Source of the DNA: Gammaproteobacteria bacterium
GTDB lineage: Bacteria > Pseudomonadota > Gammaproteobacteria > Eutrophobiales > Eutrophobiaceae
Assembly: GCA_965221695.1 (NCBI GenBank)
Contig: OZ244905.1
Span: 762,355 to 826,354 of the forward strand
Direction of reading: 5' to 3'
Length of the DNA: 64,000 nucleotides
Position 1 is the first letter of the stretch; every line of letters begins with the position of its first letter. Below, piece by piece: positions 7,436 through 64,000 of the stretch. The notes beneath the pieces are model-generated. The model ran no database searches. It was not told where the DNA came from and was given only the letters and a program-made list of their open reading frames with translations. Both the position numbers and the translations under genes were made by a program.

Positions 7436-7486
7436 AGCATGTTGCCTGTTTCAGGACAGTAGCAAATCCGTTACACTGCGCTTGAA

Positions 7487-7978
7487 ATGGACATAACACG
7501 CAGAGATTTTATCCGGCTTACTCTCAGCCTCGCGCTGCTCCCCCCGGGCACGCGCGCCGTCTCCCGGGATACGACAGATCTGTGGTTAAACGATGATGGT
7601 AAGTTCCTGTCGGATATTGTCTACCAATTGTTCCCCCATGCGCAGTTAAGCAAGGATGTGTATGAACAGGTCGCGCAACAACTGGACGACAAGATCATGC
7701 AATCCGCGGAACTGACGGCAATGCTGGACGACGCCATCGGGGTTATGGCCGCACAATCCCAGGAACAATGGCTTGCCTTGCCGGCGCATCAGAAAGTGGC
7801 GGCGCTTGAGAAAATACAGCGCACGCCATTCTTTCAATTCGTCCGCAACGAATCCCTGAACGGGGTCTACCGCAGTCCGCTGACCTGGGAATTACTCGGC
7901 TACGAGGGGTCTTCCCTCGAGTTCGGCGGCTATATCAACCGGGGCCTCAACGACATTGACTGGTTGCCTGAACCCTGA
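7487..7978 (+). CDS. Gluconate 2-dehydrogenase subunit-3-family protein (small Tat-exported partner of a GMC oxidoreductase)
   Basis: 163 aa. Twin-arginine signal MDITRRDFIRLTLSLALLPPGTRA. Lies directly upstream of the GMC flavoprotein gene. Confidence 0.7.
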   Translation: MDITRRDFIRLTLSLALLPPGTRAVSRDTTDLWLNDDGKFLSDIVYQLFPHAQLSKDVYEQVAQQLDDKIMQSAELTAMLDDAIGVMAAQSQEQWLALPAHQKVAALEKIQRTPFFQFVRNESLNGVYRSPLTWELLGYEGSSLEFGGYINRGLNDIDWLPEP

Positions 7979-44545: not shown

Positions 44546-45130
44546 TCATTCGACTGAAAAATAATCCGCAAGCAGAGGAGAATCCCTGAGAATTGCGATG
44601 CCCCCGTGCAGTCGGGACTTCACGGTACCCACAGGGATGCCCAGGACTTGTGCGATCTCATCCAGCGACATCCCGTCCACGAATCGAAGCATCAGGGTCT
44701 CCCGTTGGCCGAGCGGCAGATTCGCAAGCAACTTGCCGAGGTCTCTGTTGTCTCTATCCTGGGGGGCGGGCATATCTTCGGGCGTTATATCATCGGCAAT
44801 CGGGAACCGTCCTGCCTTGCGCGTTGCTGAAATTGCCGCGTTTTTTGCTATGGGATAGAGCAGCGTCGTCAGCTTGGCTGTCAGTATTATCCCTTCACCG
44901 GCAGGCGGAAAACGACGTAGCAGTTGGACAAAGGTATCTTGGAGCACATCCAGTGCGACATCGATATCAGGAGTAAAGCGTAGCGCTACGCGCAACACGT
45001 AATCCTTGTGGCGCAGATACAGGGCTTCAAACGCGGCCGCCGCTGCGACTGCATCACCATGGTTGCAAACGTCCACCAGCGTTTCGTCGTTACGAGGGTC
45101 TTGCCGATGGCTCCGGACCATGATGTGCAA
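44546..45130 (-). CDS. RNA polymerase ECF-type sigma-70 factor
   Basis: 194 aa. Region 2 (YLRHKDYVLRVALRFT...DVLQDTFVQLL) and region 4 HTH (LPLGQRETLMLRFVDGMSLDEIAQVLGIPVGTVKSRL). Confidence 0.85.
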   Translation of the reverse strand: MHIMVRSHRQDPRNDETLVDVCNHGDAVAAAAAFEALYLRHKDYVLRVALRFTPDIDVALDVLQDTFVQLLRRFPPAGEGIILTAKLTTLLYPIAKNAAISATRKAGRFPIADDITPEDMPAPQDRDNRDLGKLLANLPLGQRETLMLRFVDGMSLDEIAQVLGIPVGTVKSRLHGGIAILRDSPLLADYFSVE

Positions 45131-45285: not shown

Positions 45286-45735
45286 TTAGCTCTCCATTGT
45301 CATGGTTTCAGCGGCCCTGTCACCTACAACAAGGCTTCTTCCCACAGATCGTAAGGCCACTTCAACACTGCTGATATGCGAACGATGATCTGGGTCAACG
45401 AGCTTTCGGGCCGCAGCCTCGCTCAGACCAAGACGTTTTGCCAGCGCTGTCTTGCTAATACCCTGGCGGCGCATGGCCGTATACAGCGCCAATTTTGCAG
45501 CTACGACTGGTGAAACCGCAACAAGTTCCTGGCCATCCACCACGGCGCTCGGTACCGGAATGTCCCAATGCTGCCGAACATACCCTGCCAAAGCGGCTGT
45601 TAACGCATCTTCAGCCATTGCCAGCGCTTCGCTCCTGTCCTTACCGCCGGTAAGCGCCCCCGGCACATCCGGGAAGGTGACATAGAAACCCCCTCCCTCT
45701 TCCGGGGATAAAACACATGGATAAACGTAGTACAT
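45286..45735 (-). CDS. hicB: Type II toxin-antitoxin HicB-family antitoxin (second copy)
   Basis: 149 aa. N-terminal HicB-like fold (YVYPCVLSPEEGGGFYVTFPDVPGALTGG). C-terminal HTH/RHH-like (ISKTALAKRLGLSEAAARKL). 1-nt overlap with the upstream hicA. Confidence 0.75.
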   Translation of the reverse strand: MYYVYPCVLSPEEGGGFYVTFPDVPGALTGGKDRSEALAMAEDALTAALAGYVRQHWDIPVPSAVVDGQELVAVSPVVAAKLALYTAMRRQGISKTALAKRLGLSEAAARKLVDPDHRSHISSVEVALRSVGRSLVVGDRAAETMTMES

Positions 45736-46144: not shown

Positions 46145-48394
46145 GTGCCAACATTAGATCACAAGCTCGTAGAAATTGCACTTGAACATACAGGTGGGAC
46201 TGAGTTTGAGAAGTTTTGCCAGACTTTTTTCACAAATGTGGTGGGTGTCGAATTAGTTCCCTTGGGTGGGATGCATGATGGTGGAGCTGATGCTTTCTTA
46301 GGTGAAGGCTTGCTCCAAGGCAGTCATACCAAGCCTGATGTTTTCTTTCAAGCAACAACTCAAGCAGACCACCGTTCTAAAATTCGAGCAGACCACCGTT
46401 CTAAAATTCGACACACCGTTGAAAGATTACGAAAAGTCGGACGACAGCCCAAACTTGTTAACTATTGTACATCTCGCATGATAGGCATGATTGACAAGGA
46501 AGAAGAGGCGCTTTCAAATGAACTAAATGTCGATGTTAGAATTAGAGATCGTAACTGGATTGTCAGCAATATAAATCACTCTCCACAGACAATTGCGGCT
46601 TTCAATAGCTATTTAGCGCCATCGCTAAGTTTCCTTGAGGATTTCAATACATCCTTGAAAATAAAAGTATTGCCCGATATATCTGCACGTACTATGTGTG
46701 TATTTCTGGGGCAAGAAATAGACCGGCGGCGTGGCAATACAGATCTTCTTGAGGCGGTAACTGATAGCTTAATCTTATGGGCATTAGAAGATACTGACCC
46801 AGACACCAAAATTTTTATGAAGCGCCAAGATATTATAAATAAAATTGAAGGAACATTGCCTTCTGCAAAACAGTTCATCCGCGGCGTATTTGATAACCGA
46901 ATAAGACTATTAGCATCCAAAACTAATACTACAGGTAGAGAGATCCGTTGGTATAAGAAAGAAGATAAATTTTGTCTCCCGTATGAAACTCGTAAAATCA
47001 TAATAAATGAAAAAACTGAGGATGAATTCTTAAAAATTAAAGTCATGGATCTATACAGAAAAAGAGCCAATGAGTGTCTTAATGAGGAAACAATTGCACT
47101 TTCTGATGAGGTTGCAAACATCGCACACAGGGCGCTCGAACTGACGTTTGAAAATGAGGGGCTATTACTGGCTGCTTTTCTGACGGGAGAAAATACTCAA
47201 AACCAATACGATGGCACGATCTCAGATCAAGTTGATGAAGCCATTAATGAAACTAAACTGACCGGTGAAACCGCAACTAGTTACAAGGAGGTAGCACTGT
47301 CGATTCTTCGGCAAGCTTTTTACAAAAGTACAGAAGAAGAACGCATATATTATGGCAAACTTTCCCGCACCTATACTCTAATGTTCACATTACGCAATGA
47401 GCCGAGAATCGTTGAATATTTCAAAAGTATGTCATCAAATTTTGTTTTGTTCATTGGCTCCGACATCATCATCCGAGCGCTATCAGAGAGATATTTGGCA
47501 CCTGAAGATCAGATGACTATCAATATGCTGTATATTCTTCAAGATGCAGGCTCCTCCCTTATCCTAACCCAAATGGCAGTCAGAGAAGTTCAAGCTCACT
47601 TGAGAGCCACAAATCAGGAATTCCAGAATTACTTCGTAAGCTTGGAGCACAATGTCGACAAAGAAATTGCTCGTCACTCCGATAAAATTTTGATCCGTTC
47701 TTATTTCTATGCAAAATTTAATCCATCACTAGATTCAAAGCCCAATAGTTGGCGAGATTTCGCTGGACAGATTTGTAGCCACGAAAAACTTCATAAGACG
47801 GAAGAATCCAGGATTGAGGTGAAGAATTATTTAATTGAAAAATTCAATTTCGAGTATTTAGATGACAATGATTTGGAAAAGATCACAAATGAGAACGAAA
47901 TAAATAATCTTGCTGAAAAACTTACAGAAATCAAATCAGAGGAAGTACTAGCCCTTAACGATGCAAAACATATTCTTGGAGTCTATGGAAAACGTCGTGA
48001 CCTGCGAGAAAATCATATATCTAATCCTTATGGATATCGAACTTGGTGGCTTACGCATGAAACTAAGGTCCGAAGCGTCACTAAAGATATTGTTGATAAT
48101 CAGGGGGCAGAATATATCATCCGTCCCGAATTTATCCTGAATTTCATCGCGCTTTCACCAACAATGGCGCAAGTGCGCAAAAGTTATAATACCATTTTCC
48201 CCACTCTTTTAGGTATCAGGTTATCTAATAGAATGAGGAAAGATATTTTCCAAAAAGTAATGGGAAAAGTACAGGAAGTAAGAAGAATTGATGATGCACG
48301 CGCCAAAGCCAAGCTTGCACAGATGTCAAACGATCTAAAAGGTGACAATTTCAAGCAGTATGAAAATAATTTTGAACTCCTTTTTCAAGAATAA
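46145..48394 (+). CDS. Large hypothetical protein with an N-terminal Mrr-like (PD-(D/E)xK restriction-endonuclease) domain; candidate defence protein; low GC
   Basis: 749 aa. N-terminus TGGTEFEKFCQTFFTNVVGVELVPLGGMHDGGADAF resembles the Mrr catalytic-domain signature (…FE.F…G..V…GG.DGG.D…). About 650 further residues have no recognisable motif. GC content is visibly much lower than in the flanking genes. Contains a perfect in-frame 24-bp tandem duplication. Confidence 0.6.
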   Translation: MPTLDHKLVEIALEHTGGTEFEKFCQTFFTNVVGVELVPLGGMHDGGADAFLGEGLLQGSHTKPDVFFQATTQADHRSKIRADHRSKIRHTVERLRKVGRQPKLVNYCTSRMIGMIDKEEEALSNELNVDVRIRDRNWIVSNINHSPQTIAAFNSYLAPSLSFLEDFNTSLKIKVLPDISARTMCVFLGQEIDRRRGNTDLLEAVTDSLILWALEDTDPDTKIFMKRQDIINKIEGTLPSAKQFIRGVFDNRIRLLASKTNTTGREIRWYKKEDKFCLPYETRKIIINEKTEDEFLKIKVMDLYRKRANECLNEETIALSDEVANIAHRALELTFENEGLLLAAFLTGENTQNQYDGTISDQVDEAINETKLTGETATSYKEVALSILRQAFYKSTEEERIYYGKLSRTYTLMFTLRNEPRIVEYFKSMSSNFVLFIGSDIIIRALSERYLAPEDQMTINMLYILQDAGSSLILTQMAVREVQAHLRATNQEFQNYFVSLEHNVDKEIARHSDKILIRSYFYAKFNPSLDSKPNSWRDFAGQICSHEKLHKTEESRIEVKNYLIEKFNFEYLDDNDLEKITNENEINNLAEKLTEIKSEEVLALNDAKHILGVYGKRRDLRENHISNPYGYRTWWLTHETKVRSVTKDIVDNQGAEYIIRPEFILNFIALSPTMAQVRKSYNTIFPTLLGIRLSNRMRKDIFQKVMGKVQEVRRIDDARAKAKLAQMSNDLKGDNFKQYENNFELLFQE
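46364..46411 (+). repeat. Perfect 24-bp tandem duplication (GCAGACCACCGTTCTAAAATTCGA x2) inside the 749-aa ORF, encoding ADHRSKIR x2
   Basis: Direct read of the sequence at 46364-46387 and 46388-46411. The duplication is in frame. Confidence 0.9.
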
Positions 48395-48449: not shown

Positions 48450-48836
48450 ATGCAAACATTGCAAACAAACTCAGATATTCCGGATGACACTGCAGCGGTC
48501 ATCGAGGGTAAACACAGGACGGGTTTAACTGTTGTTCCTGACGGCTACAGGGTAAAAAAGTTGGCTGAAGTGAAAAACTATCTAAACCACAATATGGATC
48601 TGTTGGGTTTTTTATCGTCGCTGCCCGCATCTATCTCTAAATCGAAAGGCGTGGAATCCATTGACCTGGAGTTCTATCATGATATTGAGGAACATTGGGA
48701 TAAGCTGTTTGTAGTCGTCAACACTCAAATCGAAGATATGGATGAACTCGATGCCCTGGAAGACTCATTATATTCTTCTTTGTTTGAACCCAAGGATGAT
48801 ATGCTATCAGGTCGAGTGGTGCTATCCGTAGGATGA
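48450..48836 (+). CDS. Hypothetical protein (acidic C-terminus)
   Basis: 128-aa ORF with no recognised motif. The HEPN-like ORF follows 4 nt downstream. Confidence 0.4.
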   Translation: MQTLQTNSDIPDDTAAVIEGKHRTGLTVVPDGYRVKKLAEVKNYLNHNMDLLGFLSSLPASISKSKGVESIDLEFYHDIEEHWDKLFVVVNTQIEDMDELDALEDSLYSSLFEPKDDMLSGRVVLSVG

Positions 48837-49163: not shown

Positions 49164-49616
49164 GATGAGATCTCCTTTCTGGGATAACCGGAATAATCAG
49201 GATCGAGGCACACACCCAACGGCGTGTCCGGCAGTATTGTCGCATGTTCCCGGTGCAATGAATATGTGAAAGGCTCGGTATGTGTGCCCCAGGTCGGAAT
49301 GCAGTATAATCAACTTTCCTTGATATTTTGTCAGCCCGCACAAATTACAATACAAATATGAAACAGGCTGATTTCAAACAACCGGCCCAACGAATTTATC
49401 GCGCCCGGCAAACAGAAGGTGTGGAATGCAGACTGGAGTTCCACAGGCAGGATAGATCGTTCCGGTTCATCGACTCACTGTGCTGGTAGGATAGACGAAG
49501 CGCCAGAGGCAGGATGATTCGGGTGGAATTTATAGCGGTAGATACGACTGCTGACCCTGAGAGTGCAGGCAATAAAGTCAAGCGCCTCCGTAGTGCCGCA
49601 ATCAAGTAACAAGCAT

Positions 49617-51164
49617 ATGGCAAAGCCAGAAAAAAACAAAGGCGCTCATCTCGGGTTCGAGTCGAAGCTCTGGGCGACCGCGGACAAGTTGCGCGGCAAC
49701 ATGGAACCGTCCGACTACAAGCATGTCGCTCTCGGCCTGATCTTCCTCAAGTACATCTCGGACGCTTTCGAAGCAAAGCGAAGCGAGTTGCTAAAGAACA
49801 AGAATGCCGATGCCGAGGATCCGCTGGAATATCTCGCCTATAACCTCTTCTGGGTTCCTAAGGCAGCTCGCTGGTCGCGTCTGCAGGCCAGAGCCAAGCA
49901 GACGACGATTGGCAAAGACATCGACGATGCCATGCTAGCCATTGAAGCCAGCAATACCTCGCTCAAGGGCGTCCTGCCGAAAGATTACGCCCGACCGGCG
50001 CTCAATAAGGTCATGCTCGGCGAACTGATCGACCTGGTGAGCGGCATCGGCATGGCCGAAGAGGCGGACCGCTCCCGCGACATACTCGGGCGGGTGTACG
50101 AGTACTTCCTCGGCGGCTTTGCCGGGGCGGAAGGCAAGCGAGGCGGCGAGTTCTACACGCCCCGCTCCGTCGTCCGGCTACTGGTCGAAATGCTGGAGCC
50201 TTACAAGGGCCGCGTCTATGACCCCTGCTGCGGTTCCGGCGGCATGTTCGTGCAGTCAGAGCGTTTCGTCGAGGAACACGGCGGACGCGTAGGCGACATT
50301 GCTATCTACGGCCAGGAAAGCAACTACACGACCTGGCGTCTCGCCAAGATGAACCTTGCGGTGCGCGGTATCGACGCCGATATCCGCTGGAACAATGAAG
50401 GCAGCTTCCACAAAGACGAACTACCGGACCTCAAGGCCGACTTCATCCTGGCCAATCCACCCTTCAATGTCTCCGATTGGGGTGGCGACCGGCTACGCGA
50501 CGATGTCCGCTGGACGTTCGGCGTGCCACCGGTAGGCAACGCCAACTACGCCTGGCTCCAGCACATCCACCATCACCTTGCACCCAATGGATCAGCAGGG
50601 GTGGTACTCGCTAACGGTTCCATGTCCACCACAACGTCAGGTGAAGGAGACATCCGTCGCGCCATGGTCGAAGCCGATGCGGTGGATTGTATGATCGCAC
50701 TGCCGGGACAGCTCTTCTATTCGACACAGATCCCCGCTTGCCTCTGGTTCCTCGCTCGCAACAAGAATCCTGGCCAAGGTCAACGTGACCGGCGCGGCGA
50801 GGTGCTGTTCATCGACGCCCGCAAGGTCGGGCACATGGTCGACCGGACCCGTAAGGAGTTTTCTGACGAGGATATCGCACGGATCGCAGATTGCTACCAT
50901 ACCTGGCGCGGAGAACCCGACATGGCCCTATATGAAGATGAACCGGGCTTTTGCAAGTCCGCCACGCTGGAGGAGATTACGAAACACGGCCACGTTCTGA
51001 CACCCGGCCGCTATGTTGGTGCTGCGGCAATCAAAGATGATGACGTGCCATTTGAGGAGCGGTTCGCGGAGTTAAAGGAGACGCTGGCTGAGCAATTCAC
51101 CGAGTCCCGAAACCTGACCAAGATCATTCAGAATAAACTGGACGAAATCGGTACTCATGAATAG
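49617..51164 (+). CDS. hsdM: Type I restriction-modification system DNA methyltransferase subunit HsdM
   Basis: N-terminal [38 protein letters not shown] motif. N6-adenine MTase catalytic motif NPPFN ([12 protein letters not shown]). Preferred start is the ATG at 49617. Confidence 0.9.
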
Positions 51165-52449
51165 ATGGTCCATACTTTCATTGCGGGACGTCGGTGTCGA
51201 GTTGATTGACTGTCTACACAAGACACCCGCAGCACAAACGGAGGGATATCCATACGTAGGTATTCCTCAGATGAGGGACGGATGGATAGACTTTGGCAGC
51301 GCTCGAAAGATATCACATGACGACTTTGTCGAATGGACGACGAAGGCAATGCCTCAACAACACGACGTAATTCTCTCGCGGCGTACAAATCCTGGGGTAA
51401 CGGCCATTGACAGGACAGGCACTGAATTCGCGCTCGGTCAGAATCTCGTCTTACTTCGCGCAGATGGCATCCAAATCGATCCACCATTTTTGAAATGGCT
51501 CGTACGCTCGCCTGCTTGGTGGCAGCAGGTTGAAAAATTCATGAACGTTGGCGCTGTATTCAACAGCTTGAGGTGTGCTGATGTGCCTAACTTCGAGCTC
51601 CCAGTTCCGCCCTTCGAGACTCAACGGCGAATGGGAAACTTGCTTGATGTCCTTGAAAGCGCAATTGACATGAATCGTCGAATGAACGAAACACTGGAGG
51701 CGATGGCTCGGGCAATCTTCAAGGACTGGTTCGTCGATTTCGGCCCCACGCGTGCCAAGGCTGAAGGGCGCGCTCCCTACCTCGCCCCCGACATCTGGGA
51801 TCTGTTCCCTGACGCACTGGACGACGAGGGCAAGCCGGTTGGATGGGATTGGTCAAAAATCGCGTCGATGGCGAGCACTAAGCTAGGAGGTACTCCTTCG
51901 CGCAAGAAACCCGAATTGTGGGGTGGCAGTGTGCCTTGGATAAACTCGGGAAAGGTCAATCAGCTCCGTGTGATATCCCCCAGCGAATTCATCACAACTG
52001 AAGGATTAGAGAATTCCTCGGCTAAGCTACTGCCCAAGAGAACGACTCTAATTGCCATTACTGGCGCCACTTTAGGCCAAGTTAGTCTTAGCGAGTGTGA
52101 GACTAGCACCAATCAATCTGTGGTTGGCATAGTCGGCAATGATCGAATGCTGAATGAGTTTCTATATTGTTGGATAAGAGAAAATATTGGCGAGCTTCTT
52201 GCGTTACAGACAGGTGCCGCTCAACAACACATCAACAAGGGCAATGTTGACCAATTAGCGGTTCTGTCTCCAGCCGCGGAAGTATTGAACTCTTGGGTTA
52301 GTCTGTCACGGCCGCTCTTTGACTTGATTGCGTTGAATTGCTTCGAAAGTGAAACCCTATCCGTAACTCGCGACCTTCTCCTTCCAAAACTCATGTCCGG
52401 CGAAATCCGTCTTCGGGATGCCGAAAGGGCTGTTGAGGCCGTGGCATGA
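51157..52449 (+). CDS. hsdS: Type I restriction-modification specificity subunit HsdS
   Basis: 430 aa. Two target-recognition-domain halves with conserved spacer helices. Overlaps hsdM by 8 nt. Confidence 0.8.
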
Positions 52450-53594
52450 TCCGCGTCCCCGTCAACCCCGATCTTCTGCGCTGGGCCCGCGAGCGCGCCA
52501 GAGTCACGCAGGATGACCTGACCGTTAAGTTCAAGAAGCTGCCCAGTTGGGAGGACGGAGAGGCGCAACCTACTCTCAAGCAATTGGAAAAGTTCGCTCG
52601 CGCCGTCCATGTGCCATTCGGTTACCTTTTTCTCACAGAGCCTCCCGAGGAACCTCTCCCGATTTCGGATTTTCGTACGGTCACGGATACTGCAACCGCC
52701 AGACCAAGTCCGGATTTGCTCGACACACTCTACGCCATGCAGCGGCGGCAGGCGTGGTTACGCGAATACCTCGTTGAGAACGACGCGGAGCCGCTGACAT
52801 TCGTGGCTAGCGCCCGACTTGCTGACGACCCAAGCGTCGTAGGTCGTGAAATGCGGCGCACCCTTGGTCTTGAAGAGGGTTGGGCCGAGGGAGTCACCAC
52901 TTGGCAAGATGCCGTGAATGAACTACGCCGCATGATCGAAGGGCTAGGCGTAATGGCCGTGATCAATGGCGTGGTCGGCAACAATACGCACCGTCGGTTG
53001 AGTGTGGCGGAGTTTCGCGGGTTCGCGCTCTCGGATCGCTACGCGCCCCTGCTCTTCGTGAATGGTGCGGATGCGAAGTCCGCCCAAATGTTCACACTGG
53101 CTCACGAACTGGCGCACATCTGGCTCGGTGAAGCGGGGATTTCCAATTTCGAGAACCTCCTTCCCGGCGGCATGAAGGTGGAAGATTGGTGCAACCAGGC
53201 AGCGGCCGAATTCCTCGTACCTTCGGGAGAGTTGCGGGAGCGATGGATTGAGGTGAGACGGGGACAGAATCCCTTCGAGGACCTTGCACGCTCGTTCAAG
53301 GTGAGCCCCGTGGTCGCCGCCCGTCGAGCTATGGACCTCAATCTCCTTGAGCGTAACGCCTTTTTCGATTTCTATCAGCGCTACTTCAACCAGGAACGCA
53401 GGCCTGGCAAGACATCGTCCGGAGGCGATTTCTACAACAACCAAAATGCGCGCGTCGGTAAGCTTTTCGCAACCTGTGTGATGAGAGCGGCTCTGGAAGG
53501 TCAAATCGGATTCAGAGTGGCTTACGAATTGACCGGTCTCCGGGGCGGAACATTTCAGGATTACGCCGGGCGATTGGGCATCAGGCTCCCGTGA
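52446..53594 (+). CDS. XRE-family HTH + ImmA/IrrE-family Zn-metallopeptidase (COG2856-like)
   Basis: 382 aa. N-terminal HTH region. Zinc-peptidase HExxH motif in FTLAHELAHIWLGE. 4-nt overlap with hsdS. Confidence 0.75.
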   Translation: MIRVPVNPDLLRWARERARVTQDDLTVKFKKLPSWEDGEAQPTLKQLEKFARAVHVPFGYLFLTEPPEEPLPISDFRTVTDTATARPSPDLLDTLYAMQRRQAWLREYLVENDAEPLTFVASARLADDPSVVGREMRRTLGLEEGWAEGVTTWQDAVNELRRMIEGLGVMAVINGVVGNNTHRRLSVAEFRGFALSDRYAPLLFVNGADAKSAQMFTLAHELAHIWLGEAGISNFENLLPGGMKVEDWCNQAAAEFLVPSGELRERWIEVRRGQNPFEDLARSFKVSPVVAARRAMDLNLLERNAFFDFYQRYFNQERRPGKTSSGGDFYNNQNARVGKLFATCVMRAALEGQIGFRVAYELTGLRGGTFQDYAGRLGIRLP

Positions 53595-54112
53595 TGGCAG
53601 ATCGACTCTATCTTGTAGACTCCGATGTCCTGATTACGGCGAAGAACCTTTACTATGCTTTCGATATTTGCCCGGGTTTTTGGAAGTGCTTGATTCAACG
53701 GCACCGGGAGGGTCTTGTTTTCAGCGTCGACCGGGTACGCAACGAACTGCTGGCAGGTCGCGAAACAGAGGAGCTTGTTCGCTGGGTCAGGAACGAAGTT
53801 CCGGAGGGTTTTTTCCTGGCTATGGATTCCGATGAGGTAGCTCGCGTCTATACGGAAATCATGTTGTGGGTACAGCGGCATCCGAATTACTTTGACCAGG
53901 CTAAGGCGCAATTCGCAACAAGCGCCGATGGCTGGCTCGTCGCATGCGCACAGGTGCGAAGTGCAACGGTTGTGACGAATGAGCAGCCTTCCCCGGAGTC
54001 CAGGAAAGTCGTAAAGCTGCCGGATGTCTGCGACAAGTTCAATGTTCCTTGGAGGAATACCTTTGAGATGCTTCGAGCGTTAGGGGCGCAGTTCGATTTG
54101 GAGAAGAGTTAG
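53591..54112 (+). CDS. DUF4411-family (PIN-like fold) protein, partner of the XRE/ImmA protein
   Basis: 173 aa. N-terminal LYLVDSDVLITAKNLYY (PIN-like acidic start). 4-nt overlap with the upstream gene. Confidence 0.65.
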   Translation: MMADRLYLVDSDVLITAKNLYYAFDICPGFWKCLIQRHREGLVFSVDRVRNELLAGRETEELVRWVRNEVPEGFFLAMDSDEVARVYTEIMLWVQRHPNYFDQAKAQFATSADGWLVACAQVRSATVVTNEQPSPESRKVVKLPDVCDKFNVPWRNTFEMLRALGAQFDLEKS

Positions 54113-54249
54113 ATGGCTGATGCCAGAGGCTGGAGAATCAAGATTCCGAATGCCTGCATCATGCTCGGCCTACGCTGCATGAACCCCGACGAGATGCTCC
54201 ATCGCGAGTGCGCAAGATTTATCCTGGGGACGAGAAGAGACACGGCCTG

Positions 54250-57525
<3,276 letters not shown>

Positions 57526-57976: not shown

Positions 57977-59131
57977 CTAGAATGAATCCTCACCCCCGAT
58001 ATAGCCCTTGATGGGTACCCCGGACAGGGGTTCGCCGCCGTCTTTGCCTACCCGGTAGGTTTCCTGGAAGTACAGTGAGTGGGTGCGTTCCTGGTTCATG
58101 AAGTGCGGGTGCATTGAGCAGACCATGTTCTCCGGCAGTACGAAGTCAAAGCCCTCGCCTATCCTGGGCATTTCGATCATGGTCATGCCGATGGAGTGGC
58201 CGCAAACATGGCCTGAGCGGTAGCCGCGGTCGAAGATCGGCTTCATGCAGGCGTTGCTGGCTGCCTCGGCGGTGTTGCCGGCCTTCATATGCTCTTTGGC
58301 AAGTTCATGGAACTCCTGGTAAGCGGTCATCATTTCTGCGGTAGTCGCATCCATGCCTTGGGGGAACACGGGGCGGGAGAATTCGACCCAGTGGCCGCCC
58401 TCGCCGGAGACCTCGAGCCCGTACATCATACCGTCGCTGTCCTGTATGGGCCGTTGGGTGGGAAACACCATCTGCGGTTCCAGGGAGCCGTTGGGTCCCA
58501 TCTGTATCATGTCCATGGTGTTGCGGGCGCAACCGGCCGCGGCAAAAGTATTCTCGGCAATGCCCATCAGTTCCGCTTCCGTTTTGCCCGGCCCGTAGGC
58601 GCGGATCACATCCAGCACACCTTGCTTGTTGATCTCCATCGAATGGCGCACCGACGCGATTTCCTCCTCGCTCTTCTGCGCGCGGGCATAGTCGAACTGG
58701 ATTTCAAAATCGATAATCTCGAAGTCTTTTGCCGCCAGCGCGGAATAATCACGCACGTTGATGATGTATTGCAGGCCGTAGATGCCCAGCCGTTTCACCC
58801 CACTGCCCTGCAGAAACTCCGCCATCCACTCGCCGCAATGGGGGGGGAACTCGCGTTGTTCTATGAAGGTCGCGGTATGATCGCCCACCCAGGTCGCTTC
58901 CCGAGGAAATACGCACACGGGGTCGCCGTCGGCGGGGATAACCACGTACGCATAGCGGTGCAGGATCAGGAACCCGCACAGGTAACGCACTGCGCCCTCG
59001 AACCCGGTATATTCGCTGCCGCTGACCACCAGCGCGTCCAGTCCTTCTTTTTCCATAGCCGCGCGCACGTTCGCGTAACGGCGCTCTATCTCGGCCTGGC
59101 TGGGGCGAAAACGGTTAATATAATCAGTCAT
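57977..59131 (-). CDS. M24-family metallohydrolase (creatinase / Xaa-Pro peptidase-like)
   Basis: 384 aa. N-terminal creatinase-like domain. C-terminal pita-bread fold with metal-ligand His/Glu pattern (…HGLGH-like GHSIGM…E…). Confidence 0.75.
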   Translation of the reverse strand: MTDYINRFRPSQAEIERRYANVRAAMEKEGLDALVVSGSEYTGFEGAVRYLCGFLILHRYAYVVIPADGDPVCVFPREATWVGDHTATFIEQREFPPHCGEWMAEFLQGSGVKRLGIYGLQYIINVRDYSALAAKDFEIIDFEIQFDYARAQKSEEEIASVRHSMEINKQGVLDVIRAYGPGKTEAELMGIAENTFAAAGCARNTMDMIQMGPNGSLEPQMVFPTQRPIQDSDGMMYGLEVSGEGGHWVEFSRPVFPQGMDATTAEMMTAYQEFHELAKEHMKAGNTAEAASNACMKPIFDRGYRSGHVCGHSIGMTMIEMPRIGEGFDFVLPENMVCSMHPHFMNQERTHSLYFQETYRVGKDGGEPLSGVPIKGYIGGEDSF

Positions 59132-59145
59132 TTCTTGTTTCCTCT

Positions 59146-60093
59146 TTAGTGTTCAGGATATTCCAGGGACCATGAAGCTTCCAGGCCCTTGATGATCGCC
59201 GCGCATGCTTCGTTCATCGGACAGGGGATACCCAGTTCCCGGCCCAGCCTGGCGATGCCGCCGTTCAGGGCATCCACCTCGGTCAACCTTTCCGCCATCA
59301 CGTCCTGCAACATGCTGGGCGGGTGGTAATAGGCCTTTTCCCTGCCGTAGTCGATCAACGCCTCCGGGTCGCTGTCCAGGGTAATTCCCAGTGCGTCCGC
59401 GACGGCCACGCCTTCACTTACCAGCGCCGACATGACCTTGCGCACGCCTTCCTGGTCGCAGGCCACGCCGTGGGGCAGGCGAGTCAGCGCGCCCATCGCG
59501 TTGGAAGCGGAGTTGAAGATTAGCTTGGTCCACTGGGCGCCGCGGGCATCCTCCATGGCCAAGCACTCCATGCCGCTGCGGTTCAGCGCATCGGCCAGCC
59601 GTTCAACCTCTTGCATGGTAGCGGGATTCACGGCAAACGGGCCGATCCAGGTCTTGCCGCCAGCATCATGGTTGACCACGCCCGGCGCACTGATATGTCC
59701 CGCCGGGAAGATGGTGCCCTGGATCACCCGCGGCGCATACTCGGCCACTATCTCCTCGTTACCGATACCGTTCTGCACCGAGCAGACTGCGCCATCGCGG
59801 AAGATCGGCGCCACGGCTTCCATGGCCGACCGGGTGAACATGGTCTTCGTGGCGATAATGCCGAACTCGCACTGCGGGATCTCGCTCACCTGCGTGCGCG
59901 CATGGACGGTGGCAACAAAATCGCTCAATCCGGTCAGGCGCAGACCATTCTCATTGATCGCGTCCACATGTTTGCGGTCAAGGTCAAAGGCCCAGACCTC
60001 GACATCGTCCAGCCGGGCCAGATACGCGCCGTACAGACCGCCAATGGCGCCACAACCGATGATACATACCTTCATTAAATTCTCCTCACCCAT
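59146..60093 (-). CDS. 2-dehydropantoate 2-reductase (PanE/ApbA)-family oxidoreductase
   Basis: 315 aa. N-terminal Rossmann motif MKVCIIGCGAIGGLYGAYLARL. Confidence 0.75.
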   Translation of the reverse strand: MGEENLMKVCIIGCGAIGGLYGAYLARLDDVEVWAFDLDRKHVDAINENGLRLTGLSDFVATVHARTQVSEIPQCEFGIIATKTMFTRSAMEAVAPIFRDGAVCSVQNGIGNEEIVAEYAPRVIQGTIFPAGHISAPGVVNHDAGGKTWIGPFAVNPATMQEVERLADALNRSGMECLAMEDARGAQWTKLIFNSASNAMGALTRLPHGVACDQEGVRKVMSALVSEGVAVADALGITLDSDPEALIDYGREKAYYHPPSMLQDVMAERLTEVDALNGGIARLGRELGIPCPMNEACAAIIKGLEASWSLEYPEH

Positions 60094-60161
60094 TGTGTTG
60101 CCGGCAATGGATTATGTTATGGCAGTTCTGACTTAAGCAGAGTGGTACGGGAGCGGGAGCG

Positions 60162-61118
60162 TTACCCATGACTGTAACTGCTTTCATACGCCTTGACCAA
60201 GCGGTACAAGGTCTCATGGTACGGCGCCGGAATACCAGCCTTGTGCGCCTCACGCACGATGGAACCCGTGATCCAGTCTATCTCCGTTGCGCGCTTGTTG
60301 CGCACGTCATCAAGCATTGAGGGAATATGGGCATAGTCCTCGCCGCTGGTCGTGCCCTGGTTAACCGCTCTGACGTTCATTGCCCAGGGGTCATCCGCCA
60401 GGGTCACGCCGCGTGCTTCTGCGATAGATTTGGCCTCACCCATCATCGCGTAGACCAGATGACCCAGATCCTCCAGTCTGTCCTGCGCCGCAAAGGCCTT
60501 CGCATGAGGCAGGTCTGTCAACGCTGAGATGCTGTTCACCGCGGAGTTGAAGATCAGCTTGGACCACTGGTGCGGCAGCAGGTCTTCGTAGGCCTCCGCC
60601 TTCAGTCCGGAACGAACAAACAGTTCCTCAACCTGTTTCACGAAATCAAACGTCGCGCTGCCCTGCGCCCAAGGCCCCATCCAGGTGGCCGTATCCAACT
60701 CATATTCGACATGCGTATCCGTATGGCGGGTACCGCTCATAAAGGTCACGCCGGATATGATGGGCCAGTCACCAAAGCGGCTTACCATTTCCTCGCAACC
60801 AAGGCCGTTCTGGATCATCAACACGTGGGCGCTGGTGAAATGGCCCTCAATCATCCGACTACAGTCTTCCACGGCAAGCGCCTTGGACGCAATGATTACC
60901 AGGTCAACATCGCCCAGTTCTGCCGCGTGCGCCGACGCGCGCACGTTTGCGTGCAGTTCGGATTTGCCGCTGACCCGCAGGCCCTCGGCATTCAACGCCT
61001 GCGCGTGCTCCTTGCGCCGCGTCAGTACCGCCATGTCCACGATAGCGCCCAGGTGCCCCACCAGCAAGCTGCCGATGGCGCCGGCGCCGACAACGCAAAC
61101 CTTTTCGATTTCTTTCAT
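60162..61118 (-). CDS. 2-dehydropantoate 2-reductase (PanE/ApbA)-family oxidoreductase, second paralog
   Basis: 318 aa. N-terminal motif KVCVVGAGAIGSLLVGHLGA. Confidence 0.75.
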   Translation of the reverse strand: MKEIEKVCVVGAGAIGSLLVGHLGAIVDMAVLTRRKEHAQALNAEGLRVSGKSELHANVRASAHAAELGDVDLVIIASKALAVEDCSRMIEGHFTSAHVLMIQNGLGCEEMVSRFGDWPIISGVTFMSGTRHTDTHVEYELDTATWMGPWAQGSATFDFVKQVEELFVRSGLKAEAYEDLLPHQWSKLIFNSAVNSISALTDLPHAKAFAAQDRLEDLGHLVYAMMGEAKSIAEARGVTLADDPWAMNVRAVNQGTTSGEDYAHIPSMLDDVRNKRATEIDWITGSIVREAHKAGIPAPYHETLYRLVKAYESSYSHG

Positions 61119-62314
61119 ACAACCCGGCCGACGATGTCCTTGAATTCCTCGTCGGTGACCAGGCGCGCATTTCGGACGCCGAGTTCCTTGACTTCTGCAA
61201 GGACTCCGGCGCGCTTGTCTTCCGGTATATTCAACCCCAGCTCCTCACCCTTGAGCTTGATGTTGGACAGCCCACTCTTCTTGCCCAGCACGATGCGGCG
61301 TTCGGCGTCCACGATCTCGGAAGAATACGGCTCAATGGCCTGGGGGATATGGAACTGGTTCGCGACTGCGCCGCTCTCGCGGGTGTAGAGAAATTCGCCG
61401 ACCACGGGTTTCCAGCCATCCACGCTGTAGCCACCCGCCTGTTGCACCACTTTCGAGGTCTCCCTGGCTTGGGCCAGATCCAGCTCCACCGGCATGTCGT
61501 ACAGGCATTGCAAGGCCAGGGCCACTTCGCAGATGTCCGCATTGCCGGCGCGCTCGCCCATGCCGTTGATCGTGCCTTGGATCCAGCGGGCGCCGCCGCG
61601 CACGGCCGCCACTGCGCTTGCGGTGGCAAGACCGAAATCATTATGGCCGTGCCAGTGGATGGGGATGTCAGGCCCGACCCAACTGCTGACCTCGCCGATC
61701 AATCGTTCCACCGCTTCAGGTGAACAGACACCGATAGTATCCACCACGGACACCTCATCGGCGCCCTGCTCAATGGCCGTCGAATACACGTCGCGCAGGA
61801 ACCCCAGGTCGCTGCGCGTGGAGTCCACGGCAAAGAAGTTCACGGTTTTTATGCCGTTGTCCTTCGCATGCCTGATGGCATCGGTAACGCGCTGCAGGAC
61901 GACGTCCCGGGTGAAACCGTATGCCTTGATCTTCATATCGCTGGTCGAAATTTCAATCAGCACATGTTCCGTGCCCAATTCAATATGGGCGTCGATATCC
62001 GCCTTGACGGCGCGGGAAAACCCCCAGATTTCAGAGCGCAGTCCCGCATCCAGGATGCGTTTCACCGCCTTGGTATCGTCCTCGGAGACCCGGGGAAACC
62101 CCGATTCAATCCGAGCCACGCCCAGGTCGCTGAGTTTGCAGGCGATAGTAAATTTTTCCTCGGGGGTGAAGCAAACGCCAACGGATTGCTCGCCGTCGCG
62201 CAAGGTCGTGTCGTAAAAACGCACGGGTGTGGAGCGGTCGAAGCGGGAAAGAATGTCATCGCTGCGGTTCAACTCGCTGGTCCAGATCTTGTCCTGTGCA
62301 ATGCTTGTGTTCAT
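61115..62314 (-). CDS. HMGL-like DRE-TIM metallolyase (isopropylmalate / homocitrate / citramalate-synthase-like aldolase family)
   Basis: 399 aa. YDTTLRDGEQS at the N-terminus. HxH metal site (IHWHGHNDFGLATA). Confidence 0.75.
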   Translation of the reverse strand: MNTSIAQDKIWTSELNRSDDILSRFDRSTPVRFYDTTLRDGEQSVGVCFTPEEKFTIACKLSDLGVARIESGFPRVSEDDTKAVKRILDAGLRSEIWGFSRAVKADIDAHIELGTEHVLIEISTSDMKIKAYGFTRDVVLQRVTDAIRHAKDNGIKTVNFFAVDSTRSDLGFLRDVYSTAIEQGADEVSVVDTIGVCSPEAVERLIGEVSSWVGPDIPIHWHGHNDFGLATASAVAAVRGGARWIQGTINGMGERAGNADICEVALALQCLYDMPVELDLAQARETSKVVQQAGGYSVDGWKPVVGEFLYTRESGAVANQFHIPQAIEPYSSEIVDAERRIVLGKKSGLSNIKLKGEELGLNIPEDKRAGVLAEVKELGVRNARLVTDEEFKDIVGRVV

Positions 62315-62349
62315 CGTAATTTACTCATAATAGTTATACAATTTTATCG

Positions 62350-62460
62350 GGATTCCAGTTGACAATAATACTCCTTATAAGGAAGGTCTGCTTACTGGAT
62401 TCCCGTTTTCACGGGAATGGTACGGAGGGCGCCATGAACGGAGCCACAGTACCACTCCTT
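62350..62460. repeat. REP-like hairpin repeat, copy 5
   Basis: ACTGGATTCCCGTTTTCACGGGAATGGTAC matches the module at 8101-8134. Confidence 0.7.
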
Positions 62461-62482
62461 CGAATGTCACCGACGCCTCAAT

Positions 62483-63352
62483 TCAACTGCTGCTGAACCA
62501 GTCGTACAACTCATCGGCCGTGGCAAACCATACGTCATTCTTCGCAAGCATATAATCCAGGGCTTGCTCGAAATATTTTATCCGGTGTGGCACACCCATG
62601 ATATAAGGATGAACGCCTAACGACATGACTCTGGGCTGGCGCGCGCCTTCCTGGTAGAGCCGGTCGAACTGGTCCACAGCGCGTTGCAGCCAGACTTCCG
62701 ATGTGTGCGCGTGCACAACCATCATAGGCAGGTCGCTGAGTTCAAAGGAATACGGCATGGCCATCATCGGTCCAGCCGCGGTTTTCATGGCAACGGGGTG
62801 TTCATCCATGGGCCAGTCACAGACAAATTTGAACCCGGCCGAGGCCAGATAATCCAGCGTATCCAGGGTCTCGTGCAGGCCGGGGCCCAACCATCCTTTA
62901 GGAGATTTGCCGATATAATCGCGTAGCGCGGCGAAGGATTTATTGATGACCTCCTGCTGGTTTTCAACTACATGAACCGGCGCTTGGGCATAACCATGGC
63001 CCATGAAATCCCATCCCGCATCCAGCATGGCCCGGGCCACCGGCTCGCCGGCGCCCTCCAGGACTCGCGCGTTGATCGGCGCGCTGGCCTTGAGATTGCG
63101 TTCAGCGAGCGCTTCCATGATGCGCCAGATGCCCACCCGCATACCGTATTCGTGCCAGGCCCAGTTGGGAATGTTGGGCACGGTGGCGACCCCGGCCGGC
63201 GAGGTCACGTACTCTCTGGCCACGGGTTTTTCGATATTCCATTCTTCGATGTTGACTACCAGGTATACCGCGACGCGCGCGCCGTTCGGAAACCGGAGCT
63301 GCTCGCGTTGCGGCATGGCGGAATAATCAAATCGTTCGTGTGGCAGTTTCAT
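62483..63352 (-). CDS. Polysaccharide-deacetylase-family protein (PuuE/allantoinase-like)
   Basis: 289 aa. Family resemblance (…VAVYLVVNIEEW…HGY…). Confidence 0.65.
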   Translation of the reverse strand: MKLPHERFDYSAMPQREQLRFPNGARVAVYLVVNIEEWNIEKPVAREYVTSPAGVATVPNIPNWAWHEYGMRVGIWRIMEALAERNLKASAPINARVLEGAGEPVARAMLDAGWDFMGHGYAQAPVHVVENQQEVINKSFAALRDYIGKSPKGWLGPGLHETLDTLDYLASAGFKFVCDWPMDEHPVAMKTAAGPMMAMPYSFELSDLPMMVVHAHTSEVWLQRAVDQFDRLYQEGARQPRVMSLGVHPYIMGVPHRIKYFEQALDYMLAKNDVWFATADELYDWFSSS

Positions 63353-63459
63353 TTCCGTATTTTAACCTTTAGCCCGGATATCTCACAAGTTCAGAGATAT
63401 TCGGGCTCCCGCGCCTGTTGTGCCAGTGCGTGTGGGATTGCGATGAAAAGGTTGCGTTA

Positions 63460-63497
63460 TTACAAAAAAAACAAGGGCGGCCATCGCCGCCCTCGTG
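63460..63497 (-). terminator. Rho-independent terminator downstream of the TonB-receptor gene
   Basis: On the minus strand: GGGCGGCGATGGCCGCCC hairpin followed by TTGTTTTTTTTG. Confidence 0.7.
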
Positions 63498-63522
63498 TTC
63501 GCAATGCGCCTGAAAATCCGGG

Positions 63523-64000
63523 TTAGAAACTATAGCGCGCCTTGACGTAGTACTGACCACCGTTATAGCCGAACGGCGCAGTGGCCGGGTACTTGGAACC
63601 GGCGACGCCACCCCACTCATTCTTGTCGGGATAGTTGTCGAACAGGTTCGCGGCGCCGGCGATCAACTCCATCCCATCGAACAGACTGTAGGCCGCTTCC
63701 GCATCGAAGGTGATCTCGCCGCCGAGTTCAAGCGGTAAATCTTCAGAGTCAAGATGAGCCTCAAAATAATCCGAGTGGAAATTCAATCGCGCCAGCACGC
63801 GCCACTTGTCCTGCCGGTGGCGGAAACTGAGGTTGCCTTTCCAGTGCGGCACGTTTTCTTCCAATTGTCGTAACCGGTGATCTTTCAACAATCCGCGCTG
63901 GGTTACATTGGTGTCGACATAGCTGACCGCCAAAGACAGCACGCTGTCGCCGGCGCCCAGGCTGAAGCGGTGGTTGGCAACGATGTCCACCCCCTGGGTG
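63523..64000 (-). CDS. TonB-dependent receptor, C-terminal part; the gene continues beyond the window edge
   Basis: Beta-barrel C-terminal region ending ...YYVKARYSF with terminal Phe. Truncated. Confidence 0.75.
   Translation of the reverse strand, partial: TQGVDIVANHRFSLGAGDSVLSLAVSYVDTNVTQRGLLKDHRLRQLEENVPHWKGNLSFRHRQDKWRVLARLNFHSDYFEAHLDSEDLPLELGGEITFDAEAAYSLFDGMELIAGAANLFDNYPDKNEWGGVAGSKYPATAPFGYNGGQYYVKARYSF

Follow-up and report, generated by a model that had tools for sequence, protein, structure and literature searches.

Five genes of a gammaproteobacterial genome lie in one direction downstream of a gene for a TonB-dependent receptor (TBDR), in a stretch of 64,000 nucleotides of contig OZ244905.1 (assembly GCA_965221695.1), here called the window. 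They encode a CE4/PuuE-like hydrolase, an HMGL-family enzyme that resembles 2-isopropylmalate synthase (IPMS) and homocitrate synthase (HCS), two ketopantoate-reductase (KPR)-family dehydrogenases, PanE1 and PanE2, and an M24 hydrolase. The locus raises the question whether receptor and enzymes constitute one operon for uptake and degradation of a compound, as had been predicted from the nucleotide sequence, and what such a set of enzymes might do. On balance, we lean towards the answer that the five genes together form a conserved module which degrades a nitrogen-containing organic acid, and that this module is not led by the receptor. That the system is catabolic and has a nitrogen-containing substrate is, as a claim of its own, a matter of even chances.

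The original prediction had placed five co-directional genes 3' of a TBDR gene end and its terminator. All were present as located, on the minus strand (Table 1), and the family assignments, then made by eye, were confirmed at the family level by matches in Pfam, NCBIfam and the PDB. In transcription order the spacings are 168 nt, a 4-nt overlap, 68 nt and 14 nt, an operon-like arrangement. All five open reading frames (ORFs) are full length and retain every conserved residue. For PanE2, an alternative start at Met7 would yield 309 aa, the length called in relatives (e.g. locus L081).

Table 1. Features at the five-gene block of the window and in the adjoining island, listed in the direction of transcription of the block.
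Feature	Position	Strand	Size	Remarks
TBDR gene, 3' end	63523-64000	minus		frame open to edge, gene runs off window; TIGR01782 weak (22.5 bits, E 3e-5)
TBDR intrinsic terminator (feature bounds 63461-63496)	63496-63471	minus		11-bp stem with 8 G-C pairs, 4-nt loop, T8 tail
Last stretch upstream of CE4 ATG with homology to relatives	63353-63377	minus	25 nt	breakpoint ~63377
CE4/PuuE-like hydrolase gene	62483-63352	minus	289 aa	PF01522 25 bits
CE4-IPMS-like spacer	62315-62482	minus	168 nt	apparent recombination junction ~62411
HMGL/IPMS-like DRE-TIM metalloenzyme gene	61115-62314	minus	399 aa	PF00682 228 bits
PanE1 (KPR-family 2-oxo/2-hydroxyacid dehydrogenase)	60162-61118	minus	318 aa	ApbA + ApbA_C
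PanE2 (PanE1 paralogue)	59146-60093	minus	315 aa	ApbA + ApbA_C
M24 hydrolase gene	57977-59131	minus	384 aa	Creatinase_N + Peptidase_M24 domains
HsdR	54208-57525	plus		convergent with block; TIGR00348 604 bits
DUF4411	53591-54112			island
M78/IrrE-like	52446-53594			island
HsdS	51157-52449			island
HsdM	49563-51164			island

Do the five genes belong together? A scan of one genome per species gave 80 loci encoding relatives of the CE4 protein, and about 90 related loci overall were compared. The five window proteins were searched in the loci by tblastn, with flanks of up to 10 kb, and presence counts were restricted to loci with enough flank. In the 80-locus scan about 14 uncultured gammaproteobacterial genomes had all five genes in unchanged order (73-94% identity); across many genomes the block recurs in order with changing flanks, at 68-94% protein identity. 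The full order CE4-IPMS-PanE1-PanE2-M24 is found in L001-3, L005, L007-10, L012, L014, L019, L049, L053 and L081-84. L020 and L032-L035 also have the PanE1-PanE2-M24 module, there on the opposite strand and upstream. The CE4 and IPMS-like genes were adjacent in 32 of 36 loci, PanE1, PanE2 and M24 were present in 17-18 of 25, and the CE4 and IPMS-like pair stands alone in Thiodiazotropha, Lysobacterales, Exilibacterium and others. For the IPMS-like protein, over 120 clusters were counted at an identity of at least 90%. The cultured Elongatibacter sediminis has a homologue of the CE4 protein with 71% identity. Among the carriers are Thiodiazotropha clam symbionts and apparently also metagenome-assembled genomes derived from sponges and corals. 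Because the same genes recur in the same order in many genomes with different flanks, the grouping is far beyond chance, and the block is a real co-inherited unit. In this respect the functional block that had been postulated was borne out, the genomic contexts demonstrating co-inheritance across orders. Around more distant CE4 homologues (45-60% identity; Rokubacteria, Burkholderiales, Alphaproteobacteria) the gene contexts were heterogeneous and uninformative; neighbours there were ABC transporters, Amidohydro_2, class V aminotransferase and acyl-CoA-dehydrogenase-like proteins.

Does the TBDR belong to this unit? Its reading frame ends with ...GGQYYVKARYSF, i.e. with an aromatic C-terminus (...YYVKARYSF), and is followed by the hairpin GGGCGGC-GATG-GCCGCCC and T8. 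The contigs L081-L084, which carry a 98%-identical IPMS-like protein, align to the window only from 57977 to 63377, up to 25 nt before the CE4 start, and the blastn alignments with L081, L083 and L001 end at window 63377-63381. The window TBDR is upstream of CE4 in none of the about 90 related loci, and in the 80-locus scan by tblastn the TBDR C-terminus of the window adjoined CE4 in no locus. Instead, a divergently transcribed glutamine-synthetase (GS)-like gene is located upstream of CE4 in L001-L006, L049, L081-L084 and L094, the latter being the contig with the closest CE4 allele (89% identity). With a strong terminator in between, a breakpoint at 63377 and no such TBDR in related loci, the TonB-receptor-led operon of the original prediction is therefore not supported. 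The TBDR is a chance neighbour outside the conserved system and peculiar to this genome; through a rearrangement in this genome the TBDR gene, which is unrelated to the block, came to lie with its terminator immediately upstream. It may be argued that the receptor is co-directional with the block at a distance of 170 nt, and that TBDR genes also occur near the cluster in L036 and L020, two other lineages, so that TBDR-dependent uptake of the substrate is not implausible as such. Yet the L036 TBDR had no specific similarity to that of the window (BLASTP E 0.63) and is unrelated beyond the family level, the L036 and L020 receptors are not orthologous to it, and the ancestral neighbour of CE4 is the GS-like gene or FbiC, a gene dealt with below. 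That this TBDR imports the substrate across the outer membrane and forms a single uptake-and-catabolism locus with the five downstream genes is thus quite improbable. The 1105-aa ORF on the plus strand next to the block, which might be confused with a receptor, encodes the R subunit of a type I restriction system (HsdR in Table 1).

A rearrangement so close to a start codon raises the question whether the block is still functional in this genome. Nucleotide identity to L083 falls from 94.7% to 82.9% at window 62411. CE4 differs from its L081 counterpart with a Ks of 0.86 and 84% amino acid identity, whereas the four downstream genes have Ks values of 0.09-0.26 and 95-100% amino acid identity. 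Because of the drop in identity and the contrast in Ks, this mosaic divergence suggests a recombination junction at about 62411 which may have arrived with the upstream rearrangement. Conceivably, then, what is left here is a stranded remnant that a rearrangement has separated from regulator, partners and promoter region and that is silent or decaying. The loss of the native upstream region, the junction in the spacer, the mobile and defence DNA at the block's other side and the absence of partner genes from the window would fit with this. Close relatives, too, sometimes carry a damaged block: in L083 an IS110-family transposase (6522-7598) is inserted between the CE4 and IPMS-like genes, and in L084 the M24 gene is split into two ORFs (13388-14532). 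Against decay speak the intact reading frames with all conserved residues kept and the Ka/Ks values of 0.01-0.11 for all five genes in comparisons of the window with L081 and L001, which demonstrate purifying selection. Furthermore, genomes of the L001 type tolerate a separation of the five genes from their LLM-FAH-M20-FbiC partners by more than 10 kb, with defence and mobile genes in between, and the partners may lie elsewhere on the chromosome. We consider a stranded remnant to be improbable, slightly more so than the receptor-led operon. Matches to a sigma-70 promoter were not commoner in the block region of the window than in shuffled sequence; a weak promoter-like match at 63388-63359 straddles the synteny breakpoint.

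The IPMS-like protein consists of a TIM barrel and an accessory subdomain and has no regulatory domain; its best PDB match is the homocitrate synthase 6ktq (E 1e-59). The metal/2-oxoacid site is kept, with LRDGEQ (R39, D40) and HWHGHND (H220, H222, H224) invariant in 17 orthologues. In the x-E-D motif, which reads VRFTAED, VEFSCED, IEFGCED, VQFSPED and VEFFCED in five solved synthases, the Glu is replaced by V163 (VNFFAVD), again invariant in the 17 orthologues down to 68% identity. Equally invariant is the replacement of the accessory-subdomain motif HESGIH (H-E/K-S/A-G-I-H) by tRESGAVANQ, in which both His residues are exchanged (R312, V317). We take the Glu of x-E-D to be E218 of Mycobacterium tuberculosis LeuA (MtLeuA) and E155 of yeast HCS (ScHCS), and the motif His to be MtLeuA H379 and NmeIPMS H297; in M. 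tuberculosis LeuA and yeast HCS this pair presumably enolises acetyl-CoA. Activity requires the accessory domain in which His379 lies (PMC9860122). An exhaustive search of 1.84 billion representative proteins was carried out and the residues were checked in the 150 nearest representatives. The canonical E/H/H was present in only 56 of these. The others were diverse proteins of about 400 aa in which the metal site was kept and hydrophobic or basic residues occupied the E/H/H positions; the window protein falls into a V/R/V group of this branch. If the missing residues are the acetyl-CoA-activating pair, as we take them to be, the proteins of this branch probably cannot perform a Claisen condensation. 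Since Glu and His are missing, a lyase function is plausible, and to this extent the 'HMGL-like lyase' which had been predicted may stand; the sequence itself is of the IPMS/HCS type. In the NCBI database the IPMS-like proteins P0011, P0044, P0049, P0056, P0103 and P0119 are named 'homoaconitate hydratase', a clear misannotation. A lower meta-cleavage pathway was dropped, as the DmpG model scored only 75-81 bits compared with 353 for the IPMS model.

PanE1 and PanE2 are 34% identical to each other. Both passed the subfamily model TIGR00745 (214 and 230 bits; cutoff 141) and remained below every equivalog cutoff (e.g. 158 vs 252; 185 vs 500). The motifs QNGxG, W(S/T)K-IFN, PSMLxDV and TExD are conserved in both paralogues (18-19 orthologues) and presumably hold the KPR catalytic residues, N98, K176, S244 and E256 in Escherichia coli. 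After beta-2, PanE1 has a conserved L-x-R-R and PanE2 a conserved Asp37. Because of this difference, Arg-Arg against Asp, PanE1 is predicted to prefer NADP(H) and PanE2 NAD(H), in line with general Rossmann-fold rules. Neighbouring panB, panC or panD genes were found neither at the window locus nor at the annotated loci of relatives.

The CE4 protein reached 118.3 bits with TIGR03212 PuuE, far from the cutoff of 424.6. Its phmmer matches in the PDB (1z7a, E 1e-25; 3cl6, E 1e-23; 3s6o) extend over residues 4-282 with E values of 1e-22 to 1e-25, and the PuuE-type motifs are conserved in 40 orthologues. It is probably a cyclic-amide or deacylating hydrolase.

In the M24 protein PF01321 scored 32 bits and PF00557 67.6 bits. 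The best PDB matches were prolidases (E 1e-11 to 1e-12); the matches of a PDB profile search were confined to prolidases and aminopeptidase P enzymes, with a creatinase appearing once and weakly and no ectoine hydrolase. The metal ligands were assigned by alignment to the prolidases 1pv9, 1wy2 and 2zsg (1pv9 numbering). Asp209 corresponds to G238 or, with the gap placed differently, to E240; Asp220 corresponds to E250, Glu313 to H341 and Glu327 to Q356, with E357 adjacent; His284 is H312, the sole canonical ligand kept. All of these window residues are invariant in 13-16 orthologues. By this alignment the metal-ligand set would be non-canonical yet invariant.

These properties bear on the simplest explanation, i.e. 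that leuA or cimA, two panE and pepQ, unrelated housekeeping genes, are adjacent by accident. Only family-level names and the NCBI label mentioned above would suggest this. The IPMS-like protein missed all equivalog cutoffs (NF002085 353 vs 517; TIGR02090 346 vs 485; NifV 291 vs 463) and is without Glu and His, the PanE-like proteins missed all of theirs, the M24 ligands are non-canonical, and the block is co-inherited across orders with changing flanks. Orthology with leucine or pantothenate biosynthesis, which the original prediction had named as the finding that would speak against it, was thus not observed: the IPMS-like protein is below the LeuA, CimA and NifV cutoffs, and the PanE-like proteins pass a subfamily model only. 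The housekeeping explanation is effectively refuted and retains a minimal probability.

Homologues lacking Glu and His were also inspected at 37-43% identity, where the gene has other neighbours: M24, a 2-hydroxyacid dehydrogenase (2-Hacid_dh) and an isochorismatase-family amidase (L085); an amidohydrolase and creatininase (L086); a cyclase/arylformamidase-type amidase, recognised by eye from its HxDxPxH motif (L088); an M29 peptidase, a LarA-type 2-hydroxyacid racemase and a dihydroxy-acid dehydratase (ILVD_EDD; L089); and an ABC importer, a 3-hydroxyacyl dehydrogenase (3HCDH), SDR, cyclase and Amidohydro_2 (L093). Amide or peptide hydrolases recur there in combination with racemases or hydroxyacid/ketoacid dehydrogenases, and these neighbours are not orthologous to those of the block. 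As far as such gene contexts can be read, the distant loci represent an independent recurrence of a functional theme. A 3-hydroxyacyl/3-hydroxybutyryl-CoA dehydrogenase gene lies directly 3' of the HMGL-like gene lacking Glu and His in L022, L024, L025 and L027 (Thiodiazotropha) and in L093 (9232-10218). This hints at a recurrent pairing of 3HCDH enzymes with the HMGL-like gene where PanE-type genes are absent.

In relatives the block belongs to a larger system of 9-12 genes in which a luciferase-like (LLM) oxidoreductase, a fumarylacetoacetate hydrolase (FAH)-family protein, M20, FbiC and an AraC regulator are upstream of CE4. The complete order in L010 and L053 is AraC, LLM, FAH, M20, FbiC, CE4, IPMS-like, PanE1, PanE2, M24. 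The 15 best NCBIfam matches of the LLM oxidoreductase are all F420-dependent families, with Mer (TIGR03555, methylene-H4MPT reductase; 170 bits) at the top. The FAH-family protein is most like 2,4-didehydro-3-deoxy-L-rhamnonate hydrolase, the M20 deacylase belongs to the ArgE/DapE subfamily and the regulator is FeaR-like. FbiC, the bifunctional FO synthase CofGH (NF006687, 1130 bits; equivalog cutoff 1018), was found in 14 of 25 loci, where its gene sits mid-operon with M20 on one side and CE4 on the other; for M20 and FAH the count was 17-18 of 25. The composition of the system is modular and patchy, and several lineages do without FbiC. In L081-84, the window's own clade, FAH-M20-FbiC is followed, on the opposite strand, by Rieske beta and Rieske alpha of a benzoate/anthranilate-class oxygenase and by GS-like; then come the five genes. 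Uptake genes vary: several loci have MFS, Thiodiazotropha a divergent NCS1-type permease and the Halieaceae-like loci TBDRs.

Further genes were noticed near the cluster. A three-subunit molybdenum hydroxylase (CoxLMS/xanthine-dehydrogenase type) is divergent from the cluster's AraC regulator in L010 (1-2569) and L053 (1-2902), also in L011; its FAD subunit scored 258 bits with a glyceraldehyde dehydrogenase beta model, and the enzyme could be a further, lineage-specific pathway component. In the Halieaceae-like loci L018, L031, L036 and L037 a PsrABC-like molybdopterin oxidoreductase, composed of Fe4S4 and molybdopterin domains, a 4Fe-4S subunit and NrfD, recurs with FdhD near CE4 (e.g. L036 11590-14758). 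The sole Rfam match, a ZMP/ZTP riboswitch (RF01750, 61.5 bits) at L032 19556-19640 (-), is about 7 kb from the cluster and probably unrelated.

How could these enzymes act together? In a possible order of steps, CE4 and the atypical M24 would act on a small organic acid that contains nitrogen and has been imported, and would hydrolyse its C-N bonds, be it in an N-acyl or amidino group or in a cyclic amide or ureide; a gamma-glutamyl-amine compound would be a further type of substrate. PanE1 and PanE2 would interconvert the resulting 2-hydroxy and 2-oxo acids, perhaps with stereo-inversion through the keto acid. For the IPMS/HCS-fold enzyme, formation or cleavage of a C-C bond is probable, in the manner of a metal-dependent lyase, aldolase or decarboxylase and not of a Claisen synthase. 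Where present, the F420-type LLM may reduce the substrate, the GS-like gamma-glutamyl ligase may activate an amine and M20 may cleave C-N bonds alongside CE4 and M24, and C-C cleavage by the FAH protein and the IPMS-like enzyme would lead to central metabolites. Because the module is joined in most relatives to LLM, FAH, M20, FbiC and AraC, and in the window's own clade to GS-like, the set as a whole resembles a reductive and hydrolytic pathway that is largely oxygenase-free. A more specific proposal, which we put forward tentatively and hold to be clearly less probable than a catabolic module as such, is that the block is the hydrolase/lyase half of an undescribed deazaflavin (F420/FO)-linked, largely oxygenase-free catabolic pathway, with a new IPMS/HCS reaction class and a new M24 variant. 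No described pathway fits, as had been stated at the outset, and a literature search yielded none, nor any paper that deals with the cluster or with the absence of Glu and His. The route for a small nitrogen-containing or hydroxy-acid compound, as originally envisaged, is still the best guess; import via this TBDR is not.

Purine/allantoin catabolism, ectoine catabolism and lysine synthesis via alpha-aminoadipate were dropped for want of a supporting gene, as were siderophore/opine-metallophore biosynthesis and F420 tail synthesis. Genes for uricase, HIU hydrolase, OHCU decarboxylase or allantoicase were in none of the annotated flanks. To name 5-substituted hydantoins, creatinine-like compounds, opines or isatin-like compounds as the substrate would be pure speculation, and no such claim is made.

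The main alternative is a biosynthetic cluster for a small molecule or a modified deazaflavin-type cofactor, in which the IPMS- and KPR-like enzymes would build a hydroxy-acid moiety and the hydrolases would serve maturation or deprotection. IPMS/HCS-like and KPR-like families are typically, indeed classically, biosynthetic, and the FO synthase in the middle of the operon could equally indicate a biosynthetic cluster. Occurrence of F420 in Proteobacteria is patchy and variable, its physiological role there is largely unknown, and outside Actinobacteria and archaea its roles are poorly defined (2021 review, PMC8498797). Against this, no ligase, transferase, kinase or CofC/CofD/CofE-type gene was seen in any annotated flank, and the system includes four hydrolases, the FAH C-C hydrolase, the FeaR-like AraC regulator and importer-type transporters. 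The modular, patchy composition with a dispensable FbiC, the lack of the conserved Glu and His in the IPMS-like protein and the position of distant homologues beside importers and amidases point in the same direction. We regard a biosynthetic role as unlikely, albeit less so than the receptor-led operon.

Several further points weigh against a catabolic module. No member of the block has been characterised. The LLM, FAH, M20, FbiC, GS-like, Rieske and AraC genes are all absent from the 64-kb window (searched by tblastn for LLM and FbiC); the combination of F420-type LLM and FO synthase in one locus thus occurs in relatives and not in the window. An Rfam scan of the block and five related loci gave no riboswitch or leader, the CE4-IPMS spacer included. 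In L091/L092 the HMGL-like gene lies among sulfur-carrier genes, an exception to the theme described above. Finally, what is said here about the absent Glu and His, the PanE catalytic residues and the Rossmann cofactor-specificity residues carries literature assignments over to these proteins.

The other side of the block, from 45.8 to 57.9 kb, is occupied by a type I restriction-modification system into which an M78-peptidase/DUF4411 pair is embedded (Table 1). In relatives an AAA_14/DUF4143 ATPase with small ORFs (L081) or almost nothing (L001) is found at this position; the region looks like a variable defence island. GC drops to 0.42 at 48-49 kb. A 749-aa ORF without a Pfam match (46145-48394, +) lies at the edge of this low-GC stretch, and the ORF 48450-48836 had no match either. 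A HicB-like gene (45286-45735) directly follows M24 in L001 and L049 and is about 12 kb away in the window; the adjoining gene for an ECF-type sigma-70 factor (44546-45130, -), with 98-99% nucleotide identity to L081, marks the far boundary of the island.

What do these data signify? The superfamilies of the block proteins are all known, and a conserved operon without an assigned function is nothing unusual. Notable are the IPMS/HCS branch without Glu and His, the atypical M24 site and, in relatives, the FO synthase embedded in an operon with an F420-type reductase. A conserved and environmentally abundant gene system without an assigned pathway is marked out, and nitrogen-rich host metabolites are plausible substrates for its symbiotic and host-associated carriers. 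The large IPMS/HCS-like branch is routinely misannotated as "homoaconitate hydratase" or "2-isopropylmalate synthase", which matters for metabolic reconstruction. The relatives link FO synthase and an F420-type reductase to a specific gammaproteobacterial operon and in this way offer a concrete candidate function for F420 in these bacteria. Should the proposal be true, the IPMS-like enzyme would be a metal-dependent C-C lyase or decarboxylase, i.e. a new reaction class in the IPMS/HCS fold, and the founding characterised member of a large, widespread branch whose partners are amide hydrolases and hydroxyacid dehydrogenases. In the atypical M24, with its E/E/H/H/Q ligands, there would be another new catalytic variant, and the pathway would belong to marine and host-associated Gammaproteobacteria.

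Among known systems, the hydantoinase-carbamoylase, allantoin and creatinine-type pathways share the logic of a cyclic amidohydrolase combined with an M20 or M24 hydrolase, and the distant homologues lacking Glu and His adjoin creatininase, isochorismatase-type and cyclase-type amidases. Yet no enzyme is orthologous, and the DRE-TIM lyase, the two KPR-type dehydrogenases, FAH and the F420-type reductase have no counterpart in those hydrolytic pathways. PuuE allantoinase, a metal-independent cyclic amidohydrolase of the CE4 fold (3cl6, 1z7a), shares full-length homology and the motif scaffold with the CE4 protein; identity, however, is about 30%, and a Trp replaces the first His of the PuuE motif 'GHEICSHGY'. 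With the HCS, IPMS and citramalate synthases (6ktq, 3rmj, 2ztj, 3ble) the IPMS-like protein has in common the barrel with accessory subdomain, the LRDGEQ and HxHxHND motifs and about 35-40% identity, and the architecture without a regulatory domain is that of HCS (PMC9860122); its gene sits among hydrolases and not with LeuCD/LeuB or nif/lys genes. The M24 protein has the Creatinase_N and Peptidase_M24 domains of the pita-bread hydrolases creatinase, prolidase and DoeA, whereas its ligands are (G/E), E, H, H, Q(E) instead of D, D, H, E, E, and its scores are remote from DoeA/EutD (35.4 vs 613, TIGR02993; 31.6 vs 575, NF038259), with the PepQ cutoff of 630 also far off. The operon of relatives with its Mer-like LLM and bifunctional FbiC is like the F420-dependent LLM hydride transferases and FO synthase of Actinobacteria and archaea; here, in contrast, the hosts are Gammaproteobacteria, cofC, cofD and cofE were not seen in the annotated locus flanks (up to 10 kb), and the window is without both genes. 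Lastly, the GS-like ligase and two-subunit Rieske oxygenase directly upstream of CE4 in L081-84, and in part the GS-like gene alone in L001-6, L049 and L094, recall the gamma-glutamylation module of aniline dioxygenase (AtdA1/TdnQ with Rieske alpha/beta). This likeness stops short of the amidotransferase-like hydrolase and the reductase component, neither of which was seen, and the Rieske pair is confined to few strains and the module absent from the window.

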